Origin: Methanomassiliicoccaceae archaeon
Lineage (GTDB): Archaea; Thermoplasmatota; Thermoplasmata; Methanomassiliicoccales; Methanomassiliicoccaceae
Assembly (NCBI GenBank): GCA_963728405.1
Contig: CAVSJV010000007.1
Coordinates: forward strand, 1 to 64,000
Direction: 5' to 3'
Length of the DNA: 64,000 bases
Part shown: in pieces, positions 35,947-44,994 of the stretch
How positions within the stretch are numbered: position 1 is the stretch's first letter
Layout: the number at the start of each line of letters is the position of its first letter
Position numbers and translations under genes: made by a program
The notes under the pieces: generated by a model
The model's database searches: none
Told to the model about the DNA's origin: nothing
What the model saw: the letters and a program-made list of their open reading frames with translations, nothing else

Positions 35947-37027
35947 ATGAACAAAGCGATGGCGAACGGACAGGACCGATCTCTCCTCACAGTAGTTCTG
36001 GTGGTGGCCGGCCATGGTCGTGGTGCTGGCGGGACTCAAGTTCGGCTCTATCGTCCTGGGCCCCATCTTCCTCTCGGTGTTCTTTGCCATGATATTGGCC
36101 CCGGTGCTGAAGTGGTTCACTCGCCGGGGGATGCCCACCGGCGGGCCCTGGTGCTCACGATGTTCATCGTCGTCGTCCTGGGAGTGGCGGTGATCGCATT
36201 TCTCGTCCTTACCCTGATCGGACTGAAGGACCAATATCCAGCTACGAGAGCGCTTCGCCCAGACCGCTGACCAGTATCGCTCTCTCTTCCAGATCATTAG
36301 CTTCCAATGTCCGGCTAACCCAGGTCACCACGATCCTCATCGACGGCGTGTTCGTCCTCTTCGCCACGCTCTTCCTGCTGATGGAGCTTCCACGGATTCC
36401 ATGCGAGCATGGTGGCCCGGCTGGGCGTCGACCATGTGGTGGTCGGGGCACGGAGGAACTGTACCACGATATCATCGATTACTTCATAGTCCGGATAAAG
36501 ATCAATTTCTATATCAGCATAGGGGCCGTCGCGGTGCTTTTGGTGCTGGGGATAGCCCTATGCGCTCCTATGGGGACTGATGGCCTTCGCGCTGAGCTTC
36601 GTACCTTACATAGGCTATCTGATGGCGGCCATCCCGCCGATCCTCTAGCGTGGGTCCAGTATGGCTGATGGGAGCGGTGGCGGTCCTCTTGCTCTATGGC
36701 CTCATCAATGTCATCGCCGAGAACCTTATCTTCCCACAGCTGGCGGGTAAGGTGCTGGCCGTCCCCATATATGTGGTGTTCGTCTCTGTCTTCTTCTGGG
36801 GGTGGGTCCTGGGTTTGTCCGGCGTCCTCATGGCCGTTCCGTTGACCATGGCCGCGATGATATTCTTCGGCAGTTCGAGGAAACGGCATGGCTGGTCCCC
36901 TTCTTCAGGGGGGGGCGGACAAAGAGGAGAAGAAAAGCCTGCTCTGGAGGAGGGCCCCCTAGATGCCACCCCACCCTATGGTCCTGGCGTGGGTTCTACT
37001 GGGGCCTTTCTATATATTTCCGGATGA
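35947..37027 (+). pseudogene. AI-2E family transporter, heavily disrupted
   Basis: Fragments GPIFLSVFFAMILAPV.KW..RRG, FIVRIKINF, LSFVPYIG, EN.IFPQL.G, VFVSVFFWGWVLG.SGVLMAVPLT fall in different frames; an internal deletion is likely. Confidence 0.75.
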
Positions 37028-37030
37028 GAA

Positions 37031-37221
37031 GATGTGCAATTGACATCCAATTCGAGAGTTTTGCGCGATCGTTTCACTTATGCGTGAGAGTTGACATTGA
37101 AATTGACCAAATTACTTGATATAATTAGATATATGTCTAGAAAAGCGATGGAGCTTGTCAATTTTTAACTAGATGATGGAGTTTGGTAATGGTATTAGAC
37201 AATTGCACAATAATATATAAG
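37031..37221 (+). promoter_or_regulatory. Archaeal promoter with palindromic operator-like sites
   Basis: AT-rich region with BRE/TATA-like aataaTATATAAG (37209-37221), near-palindrome gatgtgcaattgacatc (37031-37047) and an inverted copy tagacaattgcacaa (37196-37210). Confidence 0.55.
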
Positions 37222-37243
37222 TTCCAATTCGACAATGCGGGCT

Positions 37244-37516
37244 ACCAAACCGACCCACGGTACTGAAGGTTGAAGCCCGCCTCGGGGGTCTCGCGGGCAA
37301 CACGAAGGCCGTGCCGGAATGAGCGATCCGTCGCAGGAGGGGGCCCGTAAAGGCTCTCGTGAACGTTCTGGAAACCGATCGCTTTCATTTCTGGCATGTC
37401 TTCTGCAATCTGGAAAGTCGCGCATGACATGTACGACTTCCTCGGTATCGTTCACTGTTCGAGGGGACCGCTAGAACAGAGCAGTACGCATGTACATTTA
37501 CAAGGAGGATGTCAGT
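37244..37516 (+). ncRNA. Candidate structured 5' leader / cis-regulatory RNA of the glutamate synthase operon
   Basis: Lies between the TATA box and the AAGGAGG SD. Helices found by eye: 37249-53/37442-46, 37269-80/37293-301, 37304-28/37377-403, 37339-45/37352-58, 37412-20/37434-41 and 37455-60/37474-79. Confidence 0.5.
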
Positions 37517-39515
37517 ATGAACGCCGCTTCATCTGACCAGGTCAACACCCCTGAGAATGCAAGATCGCCCGATCCGTGGAAGGTCCATCAGAACGCCAAG
37601 GACCTATTCCCTGAGCACGATGAGGCGCTTCAAGGCAAGCTCGCCAAAGAGATCGCCTCATTGAATATTCCTGACCTAAGGATCCTTTCAGCCATAGGGG
37701 CGAAGTCCCTTTATGCGCGCGACCAGGCGGACGTGCCGGAAATGATGAAGTCGGTATTGTTCGATTCCATGCCCGACGTCGTCGTTCAGCCATTCTCGAT
37801 CGATGCCATCCAGAAAGTTATGGGATATGCAACGGCGAACAAGGTCCCCGTGATCGTTCGAGGGGCCGGTTCTTCACCCTTCGGTGGCTCCATGCCCGTG
37901 ACGGGCGGCATCGTCCTGGACATGAACACACTGGACCAGATATTGGAATTTGATGCGGCCAGCGCTACGGTCAAAGTGCAGGCGGGCATGCGCTGGGCAG
38001 ATCTCGAGTGGTTCCTCGAGAAGGAAGATCTGAGCGTACGTTCATCGCCGTCGAGCAGGTTCTCCACCGTCGGTGGCTGGGTCGCCGCGGGAGGTATCGG
38101 TATAGGCAGCGTTTCCGCTGGAAGACTGATCGCATCGGTGACCTCCCTAGATATCGTGACCGCACCAGGCGATGTAAGGACCATAGCCCCCGGAGACCCG
38201 CTGTTCAAGCCGCTGTTCGGAAGCGAAGGGCAGGTCGCGGTCATCGCAGCCGTCACTCTAAAGCTCAAGCAGAGACCGTCCCTGACAGTTCCCCAAGCTG
38301 GTCTTCTTCACCGATCATGCCTCGGCCATGGATTATGCTATCAGCCTGGCCACGGCGGAAAAGAAGCCACTAGACCTGACCTACTACAGCCCGGCCAAGT
38401 TCAAGAGGTTCAATCAGGTGCTCCATCGCGAGGACTATCCAGAGGCCCACGGCCTCCTGATCACCTATGAGGGCGAGAAGGACCCCGCGATCGGTGCGGT
38501 CCCTCTGCCGAAGTCGGCGAAGGTCGCCCAACCTTATCTCTCCCACCTGATGTGCAACGAGCGGTACTTCCCCATGAAGTTCAGGAAGCTCGGTCCGGGC
38601 CTCATGGGCTCGGAGGTCCTGGCCCCGAAGGCCAACATGTCCAAGATCGTTGGTAAGGCGTTAGAGATCTGCGAAAGGCACCAGATCGAGCCGATGCTGG
38701 AGATACATTTCCTGGACAACGGGGATGGGATGCTCCTGTGCTACTACATCACCGACCAGGCTCGGCAGCTGAAGTATATGATGGACTCGTTCCGGGGGCT
38801 CCTGATCAGCAAGGCCCTGTACGACGAGGGGGCCAAACCTTACTCGTTCGGCGTGTGGAACCATTCCTTCATAGATCAGGGCGACCCTCAAGAGATGGCG
38901 GAGCTGGCCCATGCCAAGAAGGAACTCGATCCTAAGAACATCATGAACCGCGGCAAGTATCCTCGCCTGGGTGGTAAGCTGGGCGGCCTGCCGGCGGCAT
39001 TGTTCAGCCCCGGGGTCCTCGGTTCGGCATTGAGGGCGGTCAACACCTTGGGCTCGATCTCTGCTGTCGGGATCAAGGCCATCGCCTCAGGGGAACTGAT
39101 GGTCAGGAAGAACGATGACATCCTCCTCTCCGCTGCGGACGAGTGCGCCATGTGCGGGGCTTGTGTAGGGGTCTGCCCGGCCTACTTGATAACCAAGGAC
39201 GAGCGCGTCACGGCGAGAGGCAAGCTCCTCACCGCCCGACAGATGGCCAAGGGCGAAGGAGTGAGCAAGGAGCACGCCCACATCACTTTCCTGTGCATGC
39301 GCTGCAAGGCCTGCGAGCAGGTATGCCAATCGAAGCTGTCCCTGGTGCCATTATATGATGAGCTGGAGAAGAGGCTGGCCGCGAAGTATGGCAAGGACGA
39401 CGAACAGGTCAAGCGCTTCATCGAACTGGCCGAGAACTCCGCTCAATACGACGCCCTGGTGGACCGGGGATTGGTGCTCGGCGCTGCCGGCAAGAACGTG
39501 GAAGGAGGCGAATAA
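37517..39515 (+). CDS. FAD-linked oxidoreductase (GlcD/type 4 fold) with C-terminal 2x[4Fe-4S] domain, frameshift at ~38295
   Basis: PDVVVQP, RGAGSS..GG, STVGGWVA.GG.G, GSEG, DPKNIMNRGK, CAMCGACVGVCP and CMRCKACEQVC. Confidence 0.88.
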
Positions 39516-39516
39516 G

Positions 39517-40878
39517 ATGTACCATCACTATCACATTCCCAAGAAGGAGCTCCCCCAGCCCCCAAAGCCGTTCGGCAAGATGGCGGTGGTCCGGAGCGAC
39601 CGATGCATGAACTGCGGGCGTTGCGTTGATGCCTGTGTCTACACCGTGCACGAGCGGTCGCCGACCGACCCGCGCCTGATGGCCGAACCGAAGAACCACC
39701 TGTGCAAGAACTGCCTGAGATGCGTGGAGACCTGCCCCCAGAGGGCGCTGACGGTAAAGCTCTCACCAGAATACCAGGCGCTCGGGGAAGGGATCTGGAC
39801 GCCGACCCGCGTGTCGACCATCTGGAACGAATCCCAGACCGGAAAGCTGCCCGTGTTCGGTGCCGGGTACCGCGGCATGTTCGCCGGTCCTGGCTACGAT
39901 TCGATGTGGACGGACATGTCCGAGATCGTACGGCCGACCAGGGATGGCATTCACGGCAGGGAGTACATATCGACCACCGTGGACCTGGGGCCTCGGGTCG
40001 ATCATCTGGAGTTCGATCCTTCCGGCAAACTGCTCACCAAGATGCCCAAGTTCGTCGAGGTGCCGTTGCCTATGCTCATGGACGTCAGTCGGCTCCCCGA
40101 CCTGGTCTCCGCCCCCTTCGAGGGACTTATCAAGGCGGCTAGCACCCTGGGAACCGTCCTTTTCTTCCCCGCGGAAGCAAAGATCCCGGAAGGCATCGGC
40201 GAGGCCAGCCAATGCCTGGCCCCGGTGTTCTCGCCCCGAAATACGGCGGCCCCCACGGTCCGGTCCCCGAAGATCGTGGAGTTGGAGCTGTCCTTGGATT
40301 GGAAGAACGACCTGGCGTCCCTGAGGTCCCGGTTCCCCGACTCCATCATCGGCGTCCGGGTCGAGGTCACGGAACGGATCGAGGAGATGGCAATAGATCT
40401 CGTCACCGCGGGGGTGGACATATTGCATCTACTGTACGATGAACAGGGTCGGGAGAAAGGGACCGGGCGTCTTGCCAAGGACTCCCTGCTCTCGATCAAC
40501 AAGGCACTGGCCCAGAGATCACTGCGTGAGTCCGTCAGCATACTATCGGCAGGAGGCCTCGCGGCGGCCGAGCATGTGCCCAAGAGCGTCATCTGTGGGG
40601 CCGACGCCGTGGTCCTGGAACAGGCGTTAAAGGTAGCTCTGGGCTGCCATGCCGGACCCACCTGCACAGTATGCCCCATGAACAACGGGAACATCACCAC
40701 CGATTTCGCCTACTGGAGGGTTGTTAACATGATCGGCGCGTGGAGGGACCAGCTGTTAGAGGTCATGGGCGCGATGGGAATTAGGGAAGCGAGGCGCCTG
40801 CGCGGGGAGACCGGCCGGGCGATATTCTACGAGGACGCGGAGAAGGATGCCTTTGCCAACATTCAGGGAGGTGCCTGA
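39517..40878 (+). CDS. Ferredoxin + degenerate glutamate-synthase FMN-barrel (GltB2-like) protein
   Basis: CMNCGRCVDAC, CKNCLRCVETCP, GAGYRG, AGGL...H..K...CGAD, LLEVMGAMG..LRGE; the canonical FMN-domain motifs are missing. Confidence 0.8.
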   Translation: MYHHYHIPKKELPQPPKPFGKMAVVRSDRCMNCGRCVDACVYTVHERSPTDPRLMAEPKNHLCKNCLRCVETCPQRALTVKLSPEYQALGEGIWTPTRVSTIWNESQTGKLPVFGAGYRGMFAGPGYDSMWTDMSEIVRPTRDGIHGREYISTTVDLGPRVDHLEFDPSGKLLTKMPKFVEVPLPMLMDVSRLPDLVSAPFEGLIKAASTLGTVLFFPAEAKIPEGIGEASQCLAPVFSPRNTAAPTVRSPKIVELELSLDWKNDLASLRSRFPDSIIGVRVEVTERIEEMAIDLVTAGVDILHLLYDEQGREKGTGRLAKDSLLSINKALAQRSLRESVSILSAGGLAAAEHVPKSVICGADAVVLEQALKVALGCHAGPTCTVCPMNNGNITTDFAYWRVVNMIGAWRDQLLEVMGAMGIREARRLRGETGRAIFYEDAEKDAFANIQGGA

Positions 40879-40879
40879 G

Positions 40880-42379
40880 ATGTGCGCTGTGTCAACGCCG
40901 ATCGTGGACGAGGGTTTCGACCAGGTGCCGTCCCGCCTGCTGCAGAGGATGAGCCGGTACAGCGTTACCAGGGCCGAGAGCTGCATCAACTGCGGCCTCT
41001 GTGCATCCCTATGTCCATATGGTGTGCACAAGCGGATCGAGGGCCACATCAAAATGCTCATACCGGCCGAAGCCCGTTGCATCGGTGCGAGCTGCTCGTC
41101 GAACGCTTTCTACTGTGTCAAGAATTGTCCGACCCAATCGCTGCAGCTCGCACCTAACCCCATCTTCGCCAGCATGGGCGATCCCAGATGGACCCCCGAC
41201 ATGATACTGGCGACCTGGGGACAGGCGGAGACCGGTCAGCCCATATCGCTGGACCATTTCACCCAGACGGGCAATTGCGGAGGCGGGTTCGATCGGATCA
41301 AGTTCCCGCTGCCGCCGATGAGGGGCAACTTCGAACCTGAAGAGATCTCCACGGCCATCGATCTCAACCACCGGAAGACTGGCCAGAAGATCAAGATCGA
41401 CATACCTGTCTACGGTGGGGGTATGTCGTTCGGTTCGATCAGCAAGCGGACCATGATCGCCCGGGCCATGACCGCCAAGGAATGGAACACCTTCACCTGC
41501 ACCGGGGAGGGCGGTTATCCGGACATCCTGGTCCCGTACAAGGAGCATGTCATCACCCAGATCGCCACCGGCCTTTTCGGTGTCCGGGAGGAGACCATCA
41601 AGCGCGCCCCGATAGTCGAGTTCAAATACGCTCAAGGGGCCAAGCCCGGTCTGGGGGGCCATCTACTTTATGAGAAGAACACCCCCGAGGTGGCCAAGAT
41701 GAGGGAGGCGGTGCCATACACCAGCCTGTTCTCTCCCTTCCCGTTCCACAGCGTCTACTCGGTCGAGGACCACAAGAAGCACCTCGACTGGATACACTCG
41801 ATAAATCCGAGAGCGTTATTGTCGGTCAAGGTGTCCACGCCCAACGACGTGGAGATGGTAGTGGTAGGGAGCTACTATGCGGGCGCCAACATCGTCCACC
41901 TGGACGGAGGCTACGGCGGCACCGGGGCCGCTCCGGAGATCGCCAAGAAGAACATCGCCCAGCCGATAGAGTACGCCATCCCCAAGGTGCACCGCTTCCT
42001 GGAGAAGGAGGGGATCAGAGAGGAGGTGACGCTTATTGCCAGCGGCGGCATGCGGACCGCCATGGACATCGCCAAGGCGATCGCCCTGGGCGCGGACGGC
42101 GTCGTCATCGGCACCGCCGAGATGGTGGCGATGGGCTGCGTCCGGTGCGCGAACTGTGAGAGCGGCCGCGGCTGCCCCCGCGGGATCGCCACCACTGACA
42201 AGGAGCTCGAACTGCAGAACGAGATACCGACCCAGGCAAGGAGGCTCTCTAACCTCTACCGCTCCTGGCAGATGCAGTGGAAGGAACTGCTCCACCGGCT
42301 GGAGATGAAGGACATAAGGGAGCTGAGGGGCCGCATGGACCTGCTCCGTTACGATGGTGTCCCCGGGAGGCTGAAGTAA
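40880..42379 (+). CDS. Archaeal-type glutamate synthase FMN-binding subunit with N-terminal ferredoxin (GltB2)
   Basis: GGMSFGSIS, TGEGG, QIATGLFGV, KYAQGAKPGLGGHL, DGGYGGTGAA, SGGMR, ALGAD, CVRCANCESGRGCPRGI. Confidence 0.93.
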   Translation: MCAVSTPIVDEGFDQVPSRLLQRMSRYSVTRAESCINCGLCASLCPYGVHKRIEGHIKMLIPAEARCIGASCSSNAFYCVKNCPTQSLQLAPNPIFASMGDPRWTPDMILATWGQAETGQPISLDHFTQTGNCGGGFDRIKFPLPPMRGNFEPEEISTAIDLNHRKTGQKIKIDIPVYGGGMSFGSISKRTMIARAMTAKEWNTFTCTGEGGYPDILVPYKEHVITQIATGLFGVREETIKRAPIVEFKYAQGAKPGLGGHLLYEKNTPEVAKMREAVPYTSLFSPFPFHSVYSVEDHKKHLDWIHSINPRALLSVKVSTPNDVEMVVVGSYYAGANIVHLDGGYGGTGAAPEIAKKNIAQPIEYAIPKVHRFLEKEGIREEVTLIASGGMRTAMDIAKAIALGADGVVIGTAEMVAMGCVRCANCESGRGCPRGIATTDKELELQNEIPTQARRLSNLYRSWQMQWKELLHRLEMKDIRELRGRMDLLRYDGVPGRLK

Positions 42380-44994
42380 TGAACCGCTCTGATGCAATTC
42401 TAGGATCGAGGAAGAAGCTAGACCCCAGGGATTTCGAGATCGTGCCCCAGGCGGCCGAAGGAGGCTGCGGCGTCGTCGGGCTCGCCGCCTCGAAGCCGGT
42501 CGAAGGGAAGCATATTCTCCAGCCGCTGCAGCAGATGCACAACCGCGGCAATGGCAAGGGCGGTGGCATATCCGCGGTCGGCCTGATCCCGGAGCAGCTG
42601 GGCGTCGACCGGAAGACCCTGGAAGAGCACTATCTCATCCAGGTGGCCTATCTCCAGGACTCGGTCCGAAAGGAGCTGGAGGAGTTCATCCACGAGCGGT
42701 ACGATGTCGCCTCGAGCCACCAGGTGTCGACCAGCTCGGACCCGGTGCTGTTGGCGCGCCTAGAGGTACGCCCACCGACGGTGGTCAGGTATTTCTGCCG
42801 GGCCAAGAAGGCCAGACTGGACTCTTTCATCGCCGAGAACAATCTCCAGGACCTCGATGAGGGGCAGGCCGAGGACGAGTACGTCTACCAGACCAGTTAT
42901 CTGATCAACCTGAAGTACTACGCGAACTCGACCATGACCGCGTTCGTCATGTCCCAGGGACGGAACATGCTGATCATGAAGATCGTTGGCTACGCCGAGG
43001 ACGTCATCCTGTACTACAACATGGAGGACTTCAAGGCGAACATCTGGATCGGGCACCAGAGATTCCCCACCAAGGGTCGGGTATGGCATCCCGGCGGGGC
43101 CCACCCCTTCATGGGGCTGGATGAGGCGCTCGTCCACAACGGGGACTTCGCCAACTACCATTCCGTATCGGAATACCTGGGCCAGAAGGGGATCAAGCCG
43201 CTGTTCCTCACCGATACCGAGGTATCTATCCTGCTGTTCGACCTGCTCAACCGGGTCTATGGCTATCCCCTGGAGTACATCCTGGAAGCCTTGGCACCGA
43301 CCACCGAAAGGGACTTCTTCCAATTGCCGGCGGAGAAGCAGAGCATCTATCGGGCGATCCAGTCGACCCATCTGCACCGCTCCCCCGACGGCCCCTGGTT
43401 CTTCATCATAAGCCGGAACGACCACTACAACGATCGCCTACAGCTGATCGGCATCACCGACACTTCGATGCTCCGGCCCCAGGTGTTCGCCCTGGTCGAA
43501 GGGGAACTGCAGATCGGGCTGATCGCATCGGAGAAACAGGCCATCGACTCCGCCTTGGAGAGCCTGGCCAAGATGTACAAGACGCTGCCGCTGCAGGCGG
43601 ACGTGTATTGGAACGCCAGGGGCGGAAGCCACACCGACGGCGGGTCGTTCATCTTCACCCTGGGCAAGGATGTGCCCGGAAAGGGGAGACCGCTGACCTG
43701 CACCAACAAGTTCGGCGCGAAGGTCGCCGTCCCGGGCAACGATTTCGACATGGCCAAGGACGCCGTCATGGCCGGGGCCCTGTCCAAAGCGGCTACCTCC
43801 GCGCTAGCCGACAAGATGCTGGCCGGAAGCCTCGAGGAAGGTTTCAAGGCCTGGACCGAGGCGGTCGCCCGCGGCTCTCCACAGGAATTGATGGACGCCA
43901 TGTCGGCGTTGTCCACGCAGGCCGAGAGCGCCGCCGGTTGCGAGAAGCGGCTGGCCCTGTTATCCCTGGCGCTGGACCGCCGATACCCGACCGGAACACT
44001 GCGCCGGAGCCGCATACTGACCCAGCTCAACAACGCCATCGCGCATATGGTGAGGTCCTCGCCCCGCATTGAGTCAGGCAAGGCATCCAGTATCGCCTTG
44101 CTCGACCTGCAGAACTACCGCTCGATCGTCGCTCCTCGGCCCGGTCAATGGGCCCTGGCGATCGATTGCGATCGTTTCCCCATGGAGGGCGAAGAGGGAG
44201 TTTCGCACGTCATCTGCCGCGCCGCCGAACTGGGATGGCAGAAGGTCATCACCGTCGGCACGCAGGGGCAGCGCTTCTTCGGTTGTGGTCTGGGCCCCCG
44301 TTCGAACGGTCTCGAGATCGATGTCTACGGCAGCTCCGGGGACTACCTGGCCTCGGGGCTGGACGGAGCCTCGATCACCATCCACGGCAACGGGCAGGAC
44401 CAGCTCGGTCAGATATTGGCCTCGGGAAAACTGGTCGTCCACGGCGATGTGGGTCAGACCTTCATGTACGGCGCCAAGGGCGGCAACATCTTCATCCGCG
44501 GCAACGCCGCGGGAAGGCCGCTGATCAACGCAGTAGGGAAGCCCCGCGTTATCATCAATGGCACTTGCCTAGACTATCTGGCCGAATCCATAATGGCCGG
44601 TGACCCGCTCAACGGCGGGGGATTCGTCGTGCTCAACGCCCTGAGCTTCGATGCAGAAGGCCGCGCCCATGATCTGGCCGAGCCGTATCCGGGCGGCAAT
44701 CTGTTCTCCCTCGCTTCCGGCGGTGCGATCTATGTCCGCGACCCGATGGACAAGGTAGGCGAGGACCAGCTCAACGGCGGTCGTATCGTCCGGATGGGGG
44801 AGAAGGATTGGGAGATGCTCCTTCCCTATCTCAGGGAGAACGAGGCGCTCTTCGGCATATCTATCGAGAACGACCTTCTCATGAAGAACGGCTCCCCGGT
44901 CCGCCCGGAGGAGATGTATAAAAAGGTCGAGGTGGTGCCGATCGCCAAGGCCGCCCCCCAGGTGGCCGAGGTGGCTGACGACGACGCGAACTGA
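42379..44994 (+). CDS. Glutamate synthase class II glutamine amidotransferase domain fused to the GXGXG beta-helix (GltB1+GltB3)
   Basis: EGGCGVVG (Ntn Cys), RGN, HQRFPT, GAHPF, VHNGD, TDTEV, DGP, LRP, ASE, and C-terminal G-rich repeats (GSSGDYLASG, GDVGQTFMYGAKGG). TAATG overlap with the upstream gene. Confidence 0.92.
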   Translation: MNRSDAILGSRKKLDPRDFEIVPQAAEGGCGVVGLAASKPVEGKHILQPLQQMHNRGNGKGGGISAVGLIPEQLGVDRKTLEEHYLIQVAYLQDSVRKELEEFIHERYDVASSHQVSTSSDPVLLARLEVRPPTVVRYFCRAKKARLDSFIAENNLQDLDEGQAEDEYVYQTSYLINLKYYANSTMTAFVMSQGRNMLIMKIVGYAEDVILYYNMEDFKANIWIGHQRFPTKGRVWHPGGAHPFMGLDEALVHNGDFANYHSVSEYLGQKGIKPLFLTDTEVSILLFDLLNRVYGYPLEYILEALAPTTERDFFQLPAEKQSIYRAIQSTHLHRSPDGPWFFIISRNDHYNDRLQLIGITDTSMLRPQVFALVEGELQIGLIASEKQAIDSALESLAKMYKTLPLQADVYWNARGGSHTDGGSFIFTLGKDVPGKGRPLTCTNKFGAKVAVPGNDFDMAKDAVMAGALSKAATSALADKMLAGSLEEGFKAWTEAVARGSPQELMDAMSALSTQAESAAGCEKRLALLSLALDRRYPTGTLRRSRILTQLNNAIAHMVRSSPRIESGKASSIALLDLQNYRSIVAPRPGQWALAIDCDRFPMEGEEGVSHVICRAAELGWQKVITVGTQGQRFFGCGLGPRSNGLEIDVYGSSGDYLASGLDGASITIHGNGQDQLGQILASGKLVVHGDVGQTFMYGAKGGNIFIRGNAAGRPLINAVGKPRVIINGTCLDYLAESIMAGDPLNGGGFVVLNALSFDAEGRAHDLAEPYPGGNLFSLASGGAIYVRDPMDKVGEDQLNGGRIVRMGEKDWEMLLPYLRENEALFGISIENDLLMKNGSPVRPEEMYKKVEVVPIAKAAPQVAEVADDDAN

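Follow-up and report, generated by a model that had tools for sequence, protein, structure and literature searches.

A candidate cis-regulatory RNA leader preceding the split glutamate synthase operon of a Methanomassiliicoccaceae archaeon

The 273 nucleotides (nt) at positions 37244-37516, plus strand, of a 64,000-nt stretch of a Methanomassiliicoccaceae genome (hereafter referred to as the window) precede a glutamate synthase operon at 37517-44994 and are interpreted here, with a probability of about one half, as an operon-specific cis-regulatory RNA leader whose effector is left unspecified. The first ~227 nt of this leader are, on comparison with a sister species, under purifying selection at the level of sequence. 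The evidence for a metabolite-sensing riboswitch is weak, and such a riboswitch is possible but unproven. The leader as it stands is a candidate cis-regulatory element.

The conserved features of the element comprise a 5'-proximal stem-loop (P1; +11 to +74 if transcription starts at 37244), a GGRAUGA junction, a purine-rich block resembling a Shine-Dalgarno (SD) sequence and a CGGUAUCGUUCAC block. The leader RNA would act in cis after the start of transcription, most likely on translation or mRNA stability, either as a binding platform for a protein, the ribosome or a small RNA, or through a switch in folding between P1 and a competing long arm. It would thereby add to promoter control exerted by a factor binding the TAGACA-N2-TGTCTA sites that the operon shares with amtB-glnK. 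At the corresponding position, sister lineages have an upstream open reading frame (ORF), with its own SD and AUG, that looks to be coupled to the first gene.

Sequence conservation and non-coding character of the leader

The leader was aligned throughout with that of a sister species (G003), and this alignment is the basis of the identity and pair-change counts reported below. It consists of a conserved core (37244-37470) and a poorly conserved linker (37471-37516). In the core, 187/227 positions are identical (82%), or 49/57, 50/60, 49/60 and 39/50 when it is divided into four consecutive segments, and the first bases of the coding sequence show the same level (36/44, 82%). Identity is 50% (59/118) upstream of the TATA box, 61% (17/28) between the TATA box and the predicted start and 41% (19/46, with indels) in the linker. 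Judged by these values, the leader core is conserved as well as coding sequence, with both flanks drifting, and is a selected element.

The description of the region as a non-coding leader on the plus strand, given by an initial annotation made from the DNA alone, agrees both with this constraint and with the nature of the indels, which are not multiples of three. The sole sizeable plus-strand ORF in the leader (37319-37474, 51 codons) is broken in G003 by one 2-nt and two 1-nt indels; at the position of its AUG, the ORF of a second relative (G010) has 10 codons and a third (G001) carries AAG for AUG. A hand count in one frame gave ~8 non-synonymous and 2 synonymous changes between the window and G003. 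A small protein gene or a coding N-terminal extension was rejected, the frames not being kept within the genus, and so was read-through of the UAG at 37472-37474, by which the ORF at 37319 would join the main gene in frame, as the indels in G003 break that frame.

Three short blocks stand out in the core. The junction motif GGAAUGA (37316-37322) is GGGAUGA in most relatives. The purine-rich SD-like block GCAGGAGGGGG (37333-37343) aligns in other lineages with an SD, after which an upstream ORF starts at its AUG. The conserved 3' block CGGUAUCGUUCAC (37443-37455) aligns across genus g22, and the exact 12-mer CGGTATCGTTCA is common to the window and one leader of that type (L019).

Related leaders and the P1 stem-loop

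Orthologues of the first protein of the operon were found in 37/201 sampled genomes of the order, that of the window included, and a metagenome scan returned 20 loci, of which 18 (L038-L055) were carried forward. From these sources, 18 leaders with the features of the window were assembled, measuring 265-337 nt from the TATA box to the ATG. They derive from the genus of the window (g1, four leaders), genus g22 (8/8), one g29 genome and five metagenome contigs; sorted by type, they include four of genus g1, 11 of the g22 type (L012-L020, L038, L040) and three metagenome contigs of a type designated C. In genus g1, the operon was present in 4/10 genomes searched. Other genera have leaders of 110-190 nt that are built differently, and those of genus g8 are short and AT-rich. 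Comparable long leaders occur in relatives, those of orthologous operons in other genera of the order measuring 190-300 nt, and a comparable length is maintained in three lineages.

All 18 leaders have in common the word CCCACGG, the GGRAUGA junction, the purine-rich block and a GGUAUYGUUCAY block. The distance of CCCACGG from TATAAG is ~38 nt, being exactly 38 nt in 9/18 leaders and within 2 nt of it in three more; in the remaining leaders the offset is not comparable, owing to a different anchor word or choice of TATA box. In the window as in six g22-type leaders, the 13-14-nt word CGACCCACGGTAC(T) is exactly 35 nt away from TATAAG. Homology between the window and the g22 leaders is likely on the strength of these words and their positions.

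The P1 domain (37254-37317, plus strand) is closed by CGGUAC (37258-37263) and GUGCCG (37311-37316) or, in another register, by CACGGU (37256-37261) and GCCGUG (37308-37313), and encloses a distal hairpin, GCCCGC (37275-37280) with GCGGGC (37293-37298). A P1 duplex forms between two anchored segments in 18/18 leaders, with energies of -7.3 to -18.1 kcal/mol. Taken in isolation, the domain likewise forms one hairpin in 18/18 leaders (mean z -1.52). On a sequence-only MAFFT alignment (A3), 77.6% of 192 cells pair, as against 22-44% when the 3' strand is slid and 71.4 +/- 1.5 in shuffles, none of 500 of which reaches the observed value. On the same alignment, the covariation score of P1 is 0.259 against 0.186 in shuffles (reached by 1/500), and both-side changes that keep pairing number 12 cells against 5.7 expected (1/500), with the caveat that related sequences can exceed such shuffles without any structure. 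An alignment fitted to a covariance model gave a similar result. The sequence of the distal hairpin varies by lineage (GCCCGC/GCGGGC, GCGCCCC/GGGGCG, GCCCC/GGGGC), and all six P1 pairs, in both registers, are the same in G003. Taken across the aligned leaders, P1 is the sole helix with cross-genus support and is a conserved 5' stem-loop. The initial annotation had recorded its CACGGU/GCCGUG register as an alternative helix that excludes the long arm; the helix is present and does exclude it, and rather than a mere alternative, it belongs to the best-supported helix of the leader. Outside P1, no significant covariation was found across the orthologous leaders.

Several other helices were considered among the relatives. 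A closing-type helix (P0) and a helix involving block 3 (P4) are 81.8% paired in g22 and vary almost only on one side, and arm 3 of the window (described below) has no counterpart in the g22 leaders. One of the alignments (A5) comprised 13/18 leaders, two g1 leaders (L010 and L011, from G001 and G010) and the three type C leaders being excluded. A long-range helix GCAUN/N'AUGC in g22, seemingly with four Watson-Crick types, was dropped because the partners, picked by eye, sit in different alignment columns. A local hairpin GCGCAU/AUGGC, predicted from a truncated alignment, was rejected as its changes are mostly disruptive, and a helix P2 directly after the junction was rejected as, in most leaders, shuffled sequences give an equally good duplex (p 0.12 in the window). 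A K-turn or box C/D reading of GGAUGA was dropped on inspection by eye, the strands it needs not being contiguous.

Folding of the leader in the window

All the helices named in the initial annotation are present in the window, at or within 1-2 nt of where it had placed them. These are, on the plus strand, a closing helix P0 (ACCGA 37249-37253 / UCGGU 37442-37446); arm 1, with GTT (37269-37271), a GAA bulge and GCCCGC (37275-37280) pairing with GCGGGC (37293-37298) and AAC (37299-37301), its GCCCGC/GCGGGC portion being the distal hairpin of P1; a long arm (37301-37328 / 37377-37405) capped by an inner hairpin; arm 3 (ggaaagtcg 37412-37420 / cgacttcc 37434-37441), the 3' strand of which has a CUUCCUC anti-SD-like run; and a hairpin before the SD (CTGTTC 37455-37460 / GAACAG 37474-37479). 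The minimum free energy (MFE) of 37244-37516 is -98.4 kcal/mol, and the MFE structure includes the distal hairpin, long arm, inner hairpin and arm 3. Enforcing the three-arm architecture through the closing helix gives -92.4 kcal/mol, 6 kcal/mol above the MFE. The long arm is mutually exclusive with the 3' strand of P1; P1 and the long arm are real alternatives, both able to form, although the cell need not use both.

The minus strand folds at -83.9 kcal/mol, with a z-score of +0.20 against dinucleotide shuffles. As the plus strand gives z = -1.32, the call of the plus strand, which had been made from the pattern of G-U pairs, is right, and a minus-strand RNA was rejected. The 212-nt conserved core has z = -2.37 (2/60 shuffles), and a second single-sequence value for the core was -2.30. 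The consensus fold of the window and G003 beats column shuffles (z -2.56, 4/300).

Pair changes against G003 were sorted into one-sided, compensatory, broken and gapped, and categories left unmentioned here had no members. In the closing helix, three of five pairs are the same and two are broken; in arm 1, eight of nine are the same and one is broken. The inner hairpin (14 pairs) has 10 unchanged, one one-sided, one compensatory (37344/37353, C-G to U-A) and two broken, and arm 3 (eight pairs) has five unchanged, one one-sided, one broken and one gap. In the long arm (26 pairs), 21 are the same, one is changed on one side and four are broken, so that 4/5 changed pairs are lost; neither the long helix of the initial annotation nor its closing helix is supported by the sister species. 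At least three of the six pairs of the hairpin before the SD are lost in G003.

Metabolite sensing

That the leader is a true metabolite riboswitch for glutamine, 2-oxoglutarate, glutamate or a cofactor, with P1 and the long arm as alternative conformers, is unlikely, although several observations speak for it. The two helices exclude each other and can both form, P1 has cross-genus support, conserved single-stranded blocks alternate with variable hairpins, and the operon belongs to nitrogen assimilation. Nor was a known RNA family matched, in line with the initial annotation, which had recognised none: Rfam 15 gave no match in the whole window at the gathering threshold, and none in 36900-37600 at E<=10 with permissive filters, and a known family was accordingly rejected.

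The distribution of the element stands against this identification. The leader has a single copy in the genome of the window by BLAST. A covariance model (R2) built from all 18 leaders found, in that genome, the seed locus and one weak match (E 0.137), with no second locus at E<=0.01; in the order, it matched 13/151 genomes, with one copy each, all at the glutamate synthase operon and all of them seeds. On 12 other loci, including other leader types and the amtB locus, R2 gave no match. Judged by these searches, the element is restricted to one nitrogen operon and does not recur before several functionally related genes or operons; such an occurrence is no less compatible with a gene-specific leader than with a class of metabolite riboswitches. 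Further points against a riboswitch are the lack of significant covariation outside P1, the broken pairs of the long arm and the unconserved linker to the SD. Archaeal terminators are oligo-T runs, and since the leader has no T run longer than three, none is visible. Nothing in the analysis points to a ligand such as glutamine, 2-oxoglutarate or flavin.

A more specific proposal, in which the leader supplies both aptamer and platform of an archaeal riboswitch class that is new and peculiar to the Methanomassiliicoccales, is quite unlikely. P1 would then form first during transcription. A nitrogen metabolite such as glutamine or 2-oxoglutarate would lock it in place, or else the long arm would displace it, and translation of the glutamate synthase operon would be set accordingly. 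Sister genera would use this sensor to gate an upstream ORF, with SD and AUG, coupled to the first gene.

Upstream open reading frames in sister lineages

The purine-rich block of the g22-type leaders has the sequence AAGGUGG and is followed, after 6-7 nt, by an AUG from which an ORF of at least 48 codons (about 49) extends in 11/11 leaders. Seven of the 11 share one frame ending at a UAG that overlaps the main SD, two are frameshifted by 4-nt indels and two have no stop. The frame from the aligned AUG is also open in 3/3 type C leaders (L043, L050, L055). Leaders of the L021 type carry ORFs of 25-26 codons whose stop overlaps the main start as AUGA or GUGA (L021/L052, which are identical, L023, and L025/L048, also identical); L024 carries a similar ORF, and the 31-codon ORFs of L022/L045 run past the main start. 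Overlapping ORFs of this kind are a known setting for translational coupling, and the upstream ORFs of the sister lineages look like such coupling. For the g22 peptide, the ratio of non-synonymous to synonymous differences (pN/pS) is 0.78, where the off-frames give 0.86 and 0.83 and the main gene gives 0.19 (9/11 sequences, 36 pairs, L017 and L040 being excluded as frameshifted), by which measure the peptide itself appears unconstrained.

It could be argued from these ORFs that the leader of the window is likewise an upstream-ORF system, specifying a leader peptide or small protein as a coupled first cistron, with its frame obscured by decay or by indel errors; the window assembly does have at least one frameshift in the adjacent gene. 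This explanation is improbable. The window and its relatives in genus g1, namely G003, G010 and G001, have no ORF in common (a different frame after a 2-nt indel, 10 codons and no AUG, respectively, in the three relatives), and in the window no AUG follows the SD-like block at 37333-37343. Therefore, the window conserves nucleotide sequence and not a peptide. In g22, too, the peptide of the open ORF shows no constraint, and 4/11 frames are frameshifted or lack a stop. As the upstream ORF is not conserved in the genus of the window, the effector is likely to be the RNA and not a peptide.

Structural signal and the possible absence of a specific role

A number of results weigh against reading the region as a regulatory RNA leader. 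The fold of the full leader is not exceptional for its composition: dinucleotide shuffles average -91.9 +/- 4.9 kcal/mol and 15/200 are as stable, so that the folding signal seen in the core is weak over the full length. In the three-arm-like fold as a whole (91 pairs), 59 pairs are the same in G003, seven are changed on one side, one is compensatory, 20 are broken and four are gapped; 8/28 changed pairs are thus kept and 20/28 broken, which is about the neutral expectation and leaves the specific three-arm fold of the initial annotation unsupported. Enforcing P1 in the window costs 9-13 kcal/mol relative to the MFE, and its isolated P1 domain has z +0.83. RNAalifold predicts no consensus pairs for the 18-sequence 5' domain, column shuffles equal the 11-sequence g22 alignment in consensus energy (z +0.76 plain, -0.8 ribosum), the single-sequence z-score of the core averages -0.57 over the 18 leaders, and the covariation of P0 and P4 is marginal (36/500). 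No SD-sequestering or terminator expression platform is conserved, with the hairpin before the SD partly broken, and no conserved SD-sequestering helix is visible because the linker is only 41% conserved. Similarly, a covariance model (R1) of 11 g22-type 5' domains gave no match to the window leader at E<=10 with default filters and, with filters off, scored it at 7.3 bits (E 0.69, rank 5 in 15 kb), and an nhmmer profile of the 11 g22-type leaders did not find it. Cross-genus homology therefore rests on short exact words and their positions, together with the common P1 columns, and is not statistically established by profile methods.

Alternatively, the region could be a long 5' untranslated region (UTR) with no specific role, its helices being those of any sequence of 55% G+C and its similarity to G003 being residual or due to variation in mutation rate. 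The z-score of -1.32, the near-neutral ratio of 8 kept to 20 broken pairs and the g22 alignment devoid of structural signal agree with this explanation, which is nevertheless rather improbable in view of the marked drop in identity from the core (82%) to its flanks (41-61%), the 13-14-nt word at an identical promoter offset in another family, the leader length kept in three lineages and the P1 pair counts in excess of controls. Very unlikely is an action of the conserved blocks as DNA, for example as downstream sites for a nitrogen regulator or an elongation-blocking factor: the best conserved word, CGACCCACGGTACT, does directly follow the predicted start with a constant spacing to the TATA box, and operator-like palindromes flank the promoter, but the leader blocks are G+C-rich, unlike the AT-rich palindrome, conservation spans ~227 nt, and the both-side changes in P1 keep pairing.

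Promoter and operator-like sites

The TATA box that the initial annotation had claimed ahead of the leader was found as TATAAG at 37216-37221 on the plus strand, ~25 nt upstream of 37244, and is kept in G003 and all 18 compared leaders. The transcription start is predicted at ~37244-37247 from promoter geometry alone, namely the usual archaeal distance from TATA box to start. The region 37000-37240 is AT-rich (36-41% G+C), and the leader following it has a coding-like composition (54-56%).

Upstream of the TATA box lie a palindromic operator-like site, TAGATA-TA-TGTCTA (TAGATATATGTCTA; 37126-37139), and a half-site, TTAGACA (37195-37201). Sites resembling TAGACA-N2-TGTCTA are also found upstream of the orthologous operons. 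In the genome of the window, three (L095 2206-2333; G000:C4:136705-136832) occur within 130 nt upstream of amtB-glnK, which encodes an ammonium transporter and a P-II protein, and one (L096 1646-1659; G000:C7:217645-217658) just upstream of a gene of the Lrp/AsnC family at C7:217674-218147. The genome-wide count of the motif is not enriched (25 against 71 for a reversed-pattern control), and because it falls below the control, the case for a regulon rests on the three-site cluster at amtB-glnK. A form of the operator with a 4-nt spacer was dropped for its wrong spacing and lack of enrichment (34 against 66 in the control). The motif is a candidate operator of a nitrogen regulon and the Lrp/AsnC-family protein a candidate regulator. 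As the operator-like motif is shared with amtB-glnK, the glutamate synthase operon is probably also under nitrogen control at the promoter.

The amtB leader of the same genome (~100 nt; L095 2340-2455) carries a hairpin, CCGAG-GAU-CUCGG, followed by GGGAUAAUGAGGUGA. This arrangement recalls the hairpin and GGRAUGA junction of the glutamate synthase leader, yet model R2 has no match there.

Operon organisation

The operon (37517-44994, plus strand) encodes a GlcD-like FAD-binding oxidase (37517-38470) followed by an FAD-oxidase C-terminal domain with a 4Fe-4S dicluster domain (38328-39515), two proteins with ferredoxin (Fer4) and FMN-binding Glu_synthase domains (39355-40878 and 40847-42379), and a 905-residue fusion of glutamine amidotransferase (GATase) and GXGXG domains (42277-44994). 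Together these genes specify a split glutamate synthase of archaeal type, joined by an additional redox module (GlcD/FeS), so that the label of nitrogen-assimilation operon, given to it in the initial annotation, is fair and borne out by the domain content. The upstream neighbour is divergent (36509-36889, minus strand), with ~630 nt of intergenic DNA between.

The first gene (37517-39515) is split by a +1 frameshift at 38289-38296: residues 1-260 of the G001 orthologue match the frame of 37517-38296, and residues 258-662 match the next frame, at 38289-39506. The open frames of first-gene orthologues measure 456-800 residues against 331 here. The split gene is either a real pseudogene or the product of an assembly indel. 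In the product of 39355-40878, the Glu_synthase match is limited to the C-terminal ~100 residues (E 1.7e-8), and that of 40847-42379 matches the same domain at E 1.5e-90; the former looks like a diverged paralogue of the latter.

The first gene starts at ATG 37517-37519, preceded by the SD GGAGG (37504-37508). A mini-ORF of three codons, AUG UCA GUA UGA, lies at 37509-37520 in an AUGA-type overlap with the main start. The same arrangement occurs in G001 (AUG UCC CCA UGA) and is absent from G003 and G010. The mini-ORF is probably incidental because its AUG abuts the SD.

Comparison with known systems

To our knowledge, few cis-regulatory RNAs are known in archaea. As far as the literature searches show, no cis-regulatory RNA is known for nitrogen assimilation in this order, and no paper found deals with the present element. 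A leader conserved like coding sequence, together with operators at the promoter, suggests that H2-dependent methylotrophic methanogens control nitrogen use at two levels. It would represent a new riboswitch class if the leader binds a metabolite, and an accessible case of post-transcriptional control in archaea if it acts via a coupled upstream ORF or a protein.

The glutamine riboswitch (glnA RNA and Downstream-peptide motif) is an RNA of ~60 nt found in cyanobacteria and marine bacteria. It is similarly a cis-acting RNA placed before nitrogen-assimilation genes, and the logic would be the same if the present leader senses a ligand; the present leader, however, is ~230 nt long, occurs in the Methanomassiliicoccales only, at one operon, and has no Rfam match at E<=10. 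Coupled upstream ORFs and leader peptides offer a second parallel, as the purine-rich block of the sister lineages serves there as SD and AUG of an ORF that ends on or next to the main start, whereas the genus of the window has no conserved ORF and the peptide is unconstrained where the ORF is open.

Methanosarcina has structured 5' UTRs of great length, as well as small RNAs or small proteins that respond to nitrogen (sP26). These share with the present case a methanogenic archaeal host, a nitrogen context and an unusually long leader; they act in trans or are proteins, unlike the cis leader described here, and no relationship in sequence would be expected. Promoter-level nitrogen control in archaea is exerted by NrpR or by repressors of the Lrp/AsnC type with palindromic operators. 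The operon resembles such systems in having TAGACA-N2-TGTCTA-like sites in common with amtB-glnK and an Lrp/AsnC gene. That control operates on DNA, upstream of the TATA box, whereas the leader element is transcribed and lies downstream of it.

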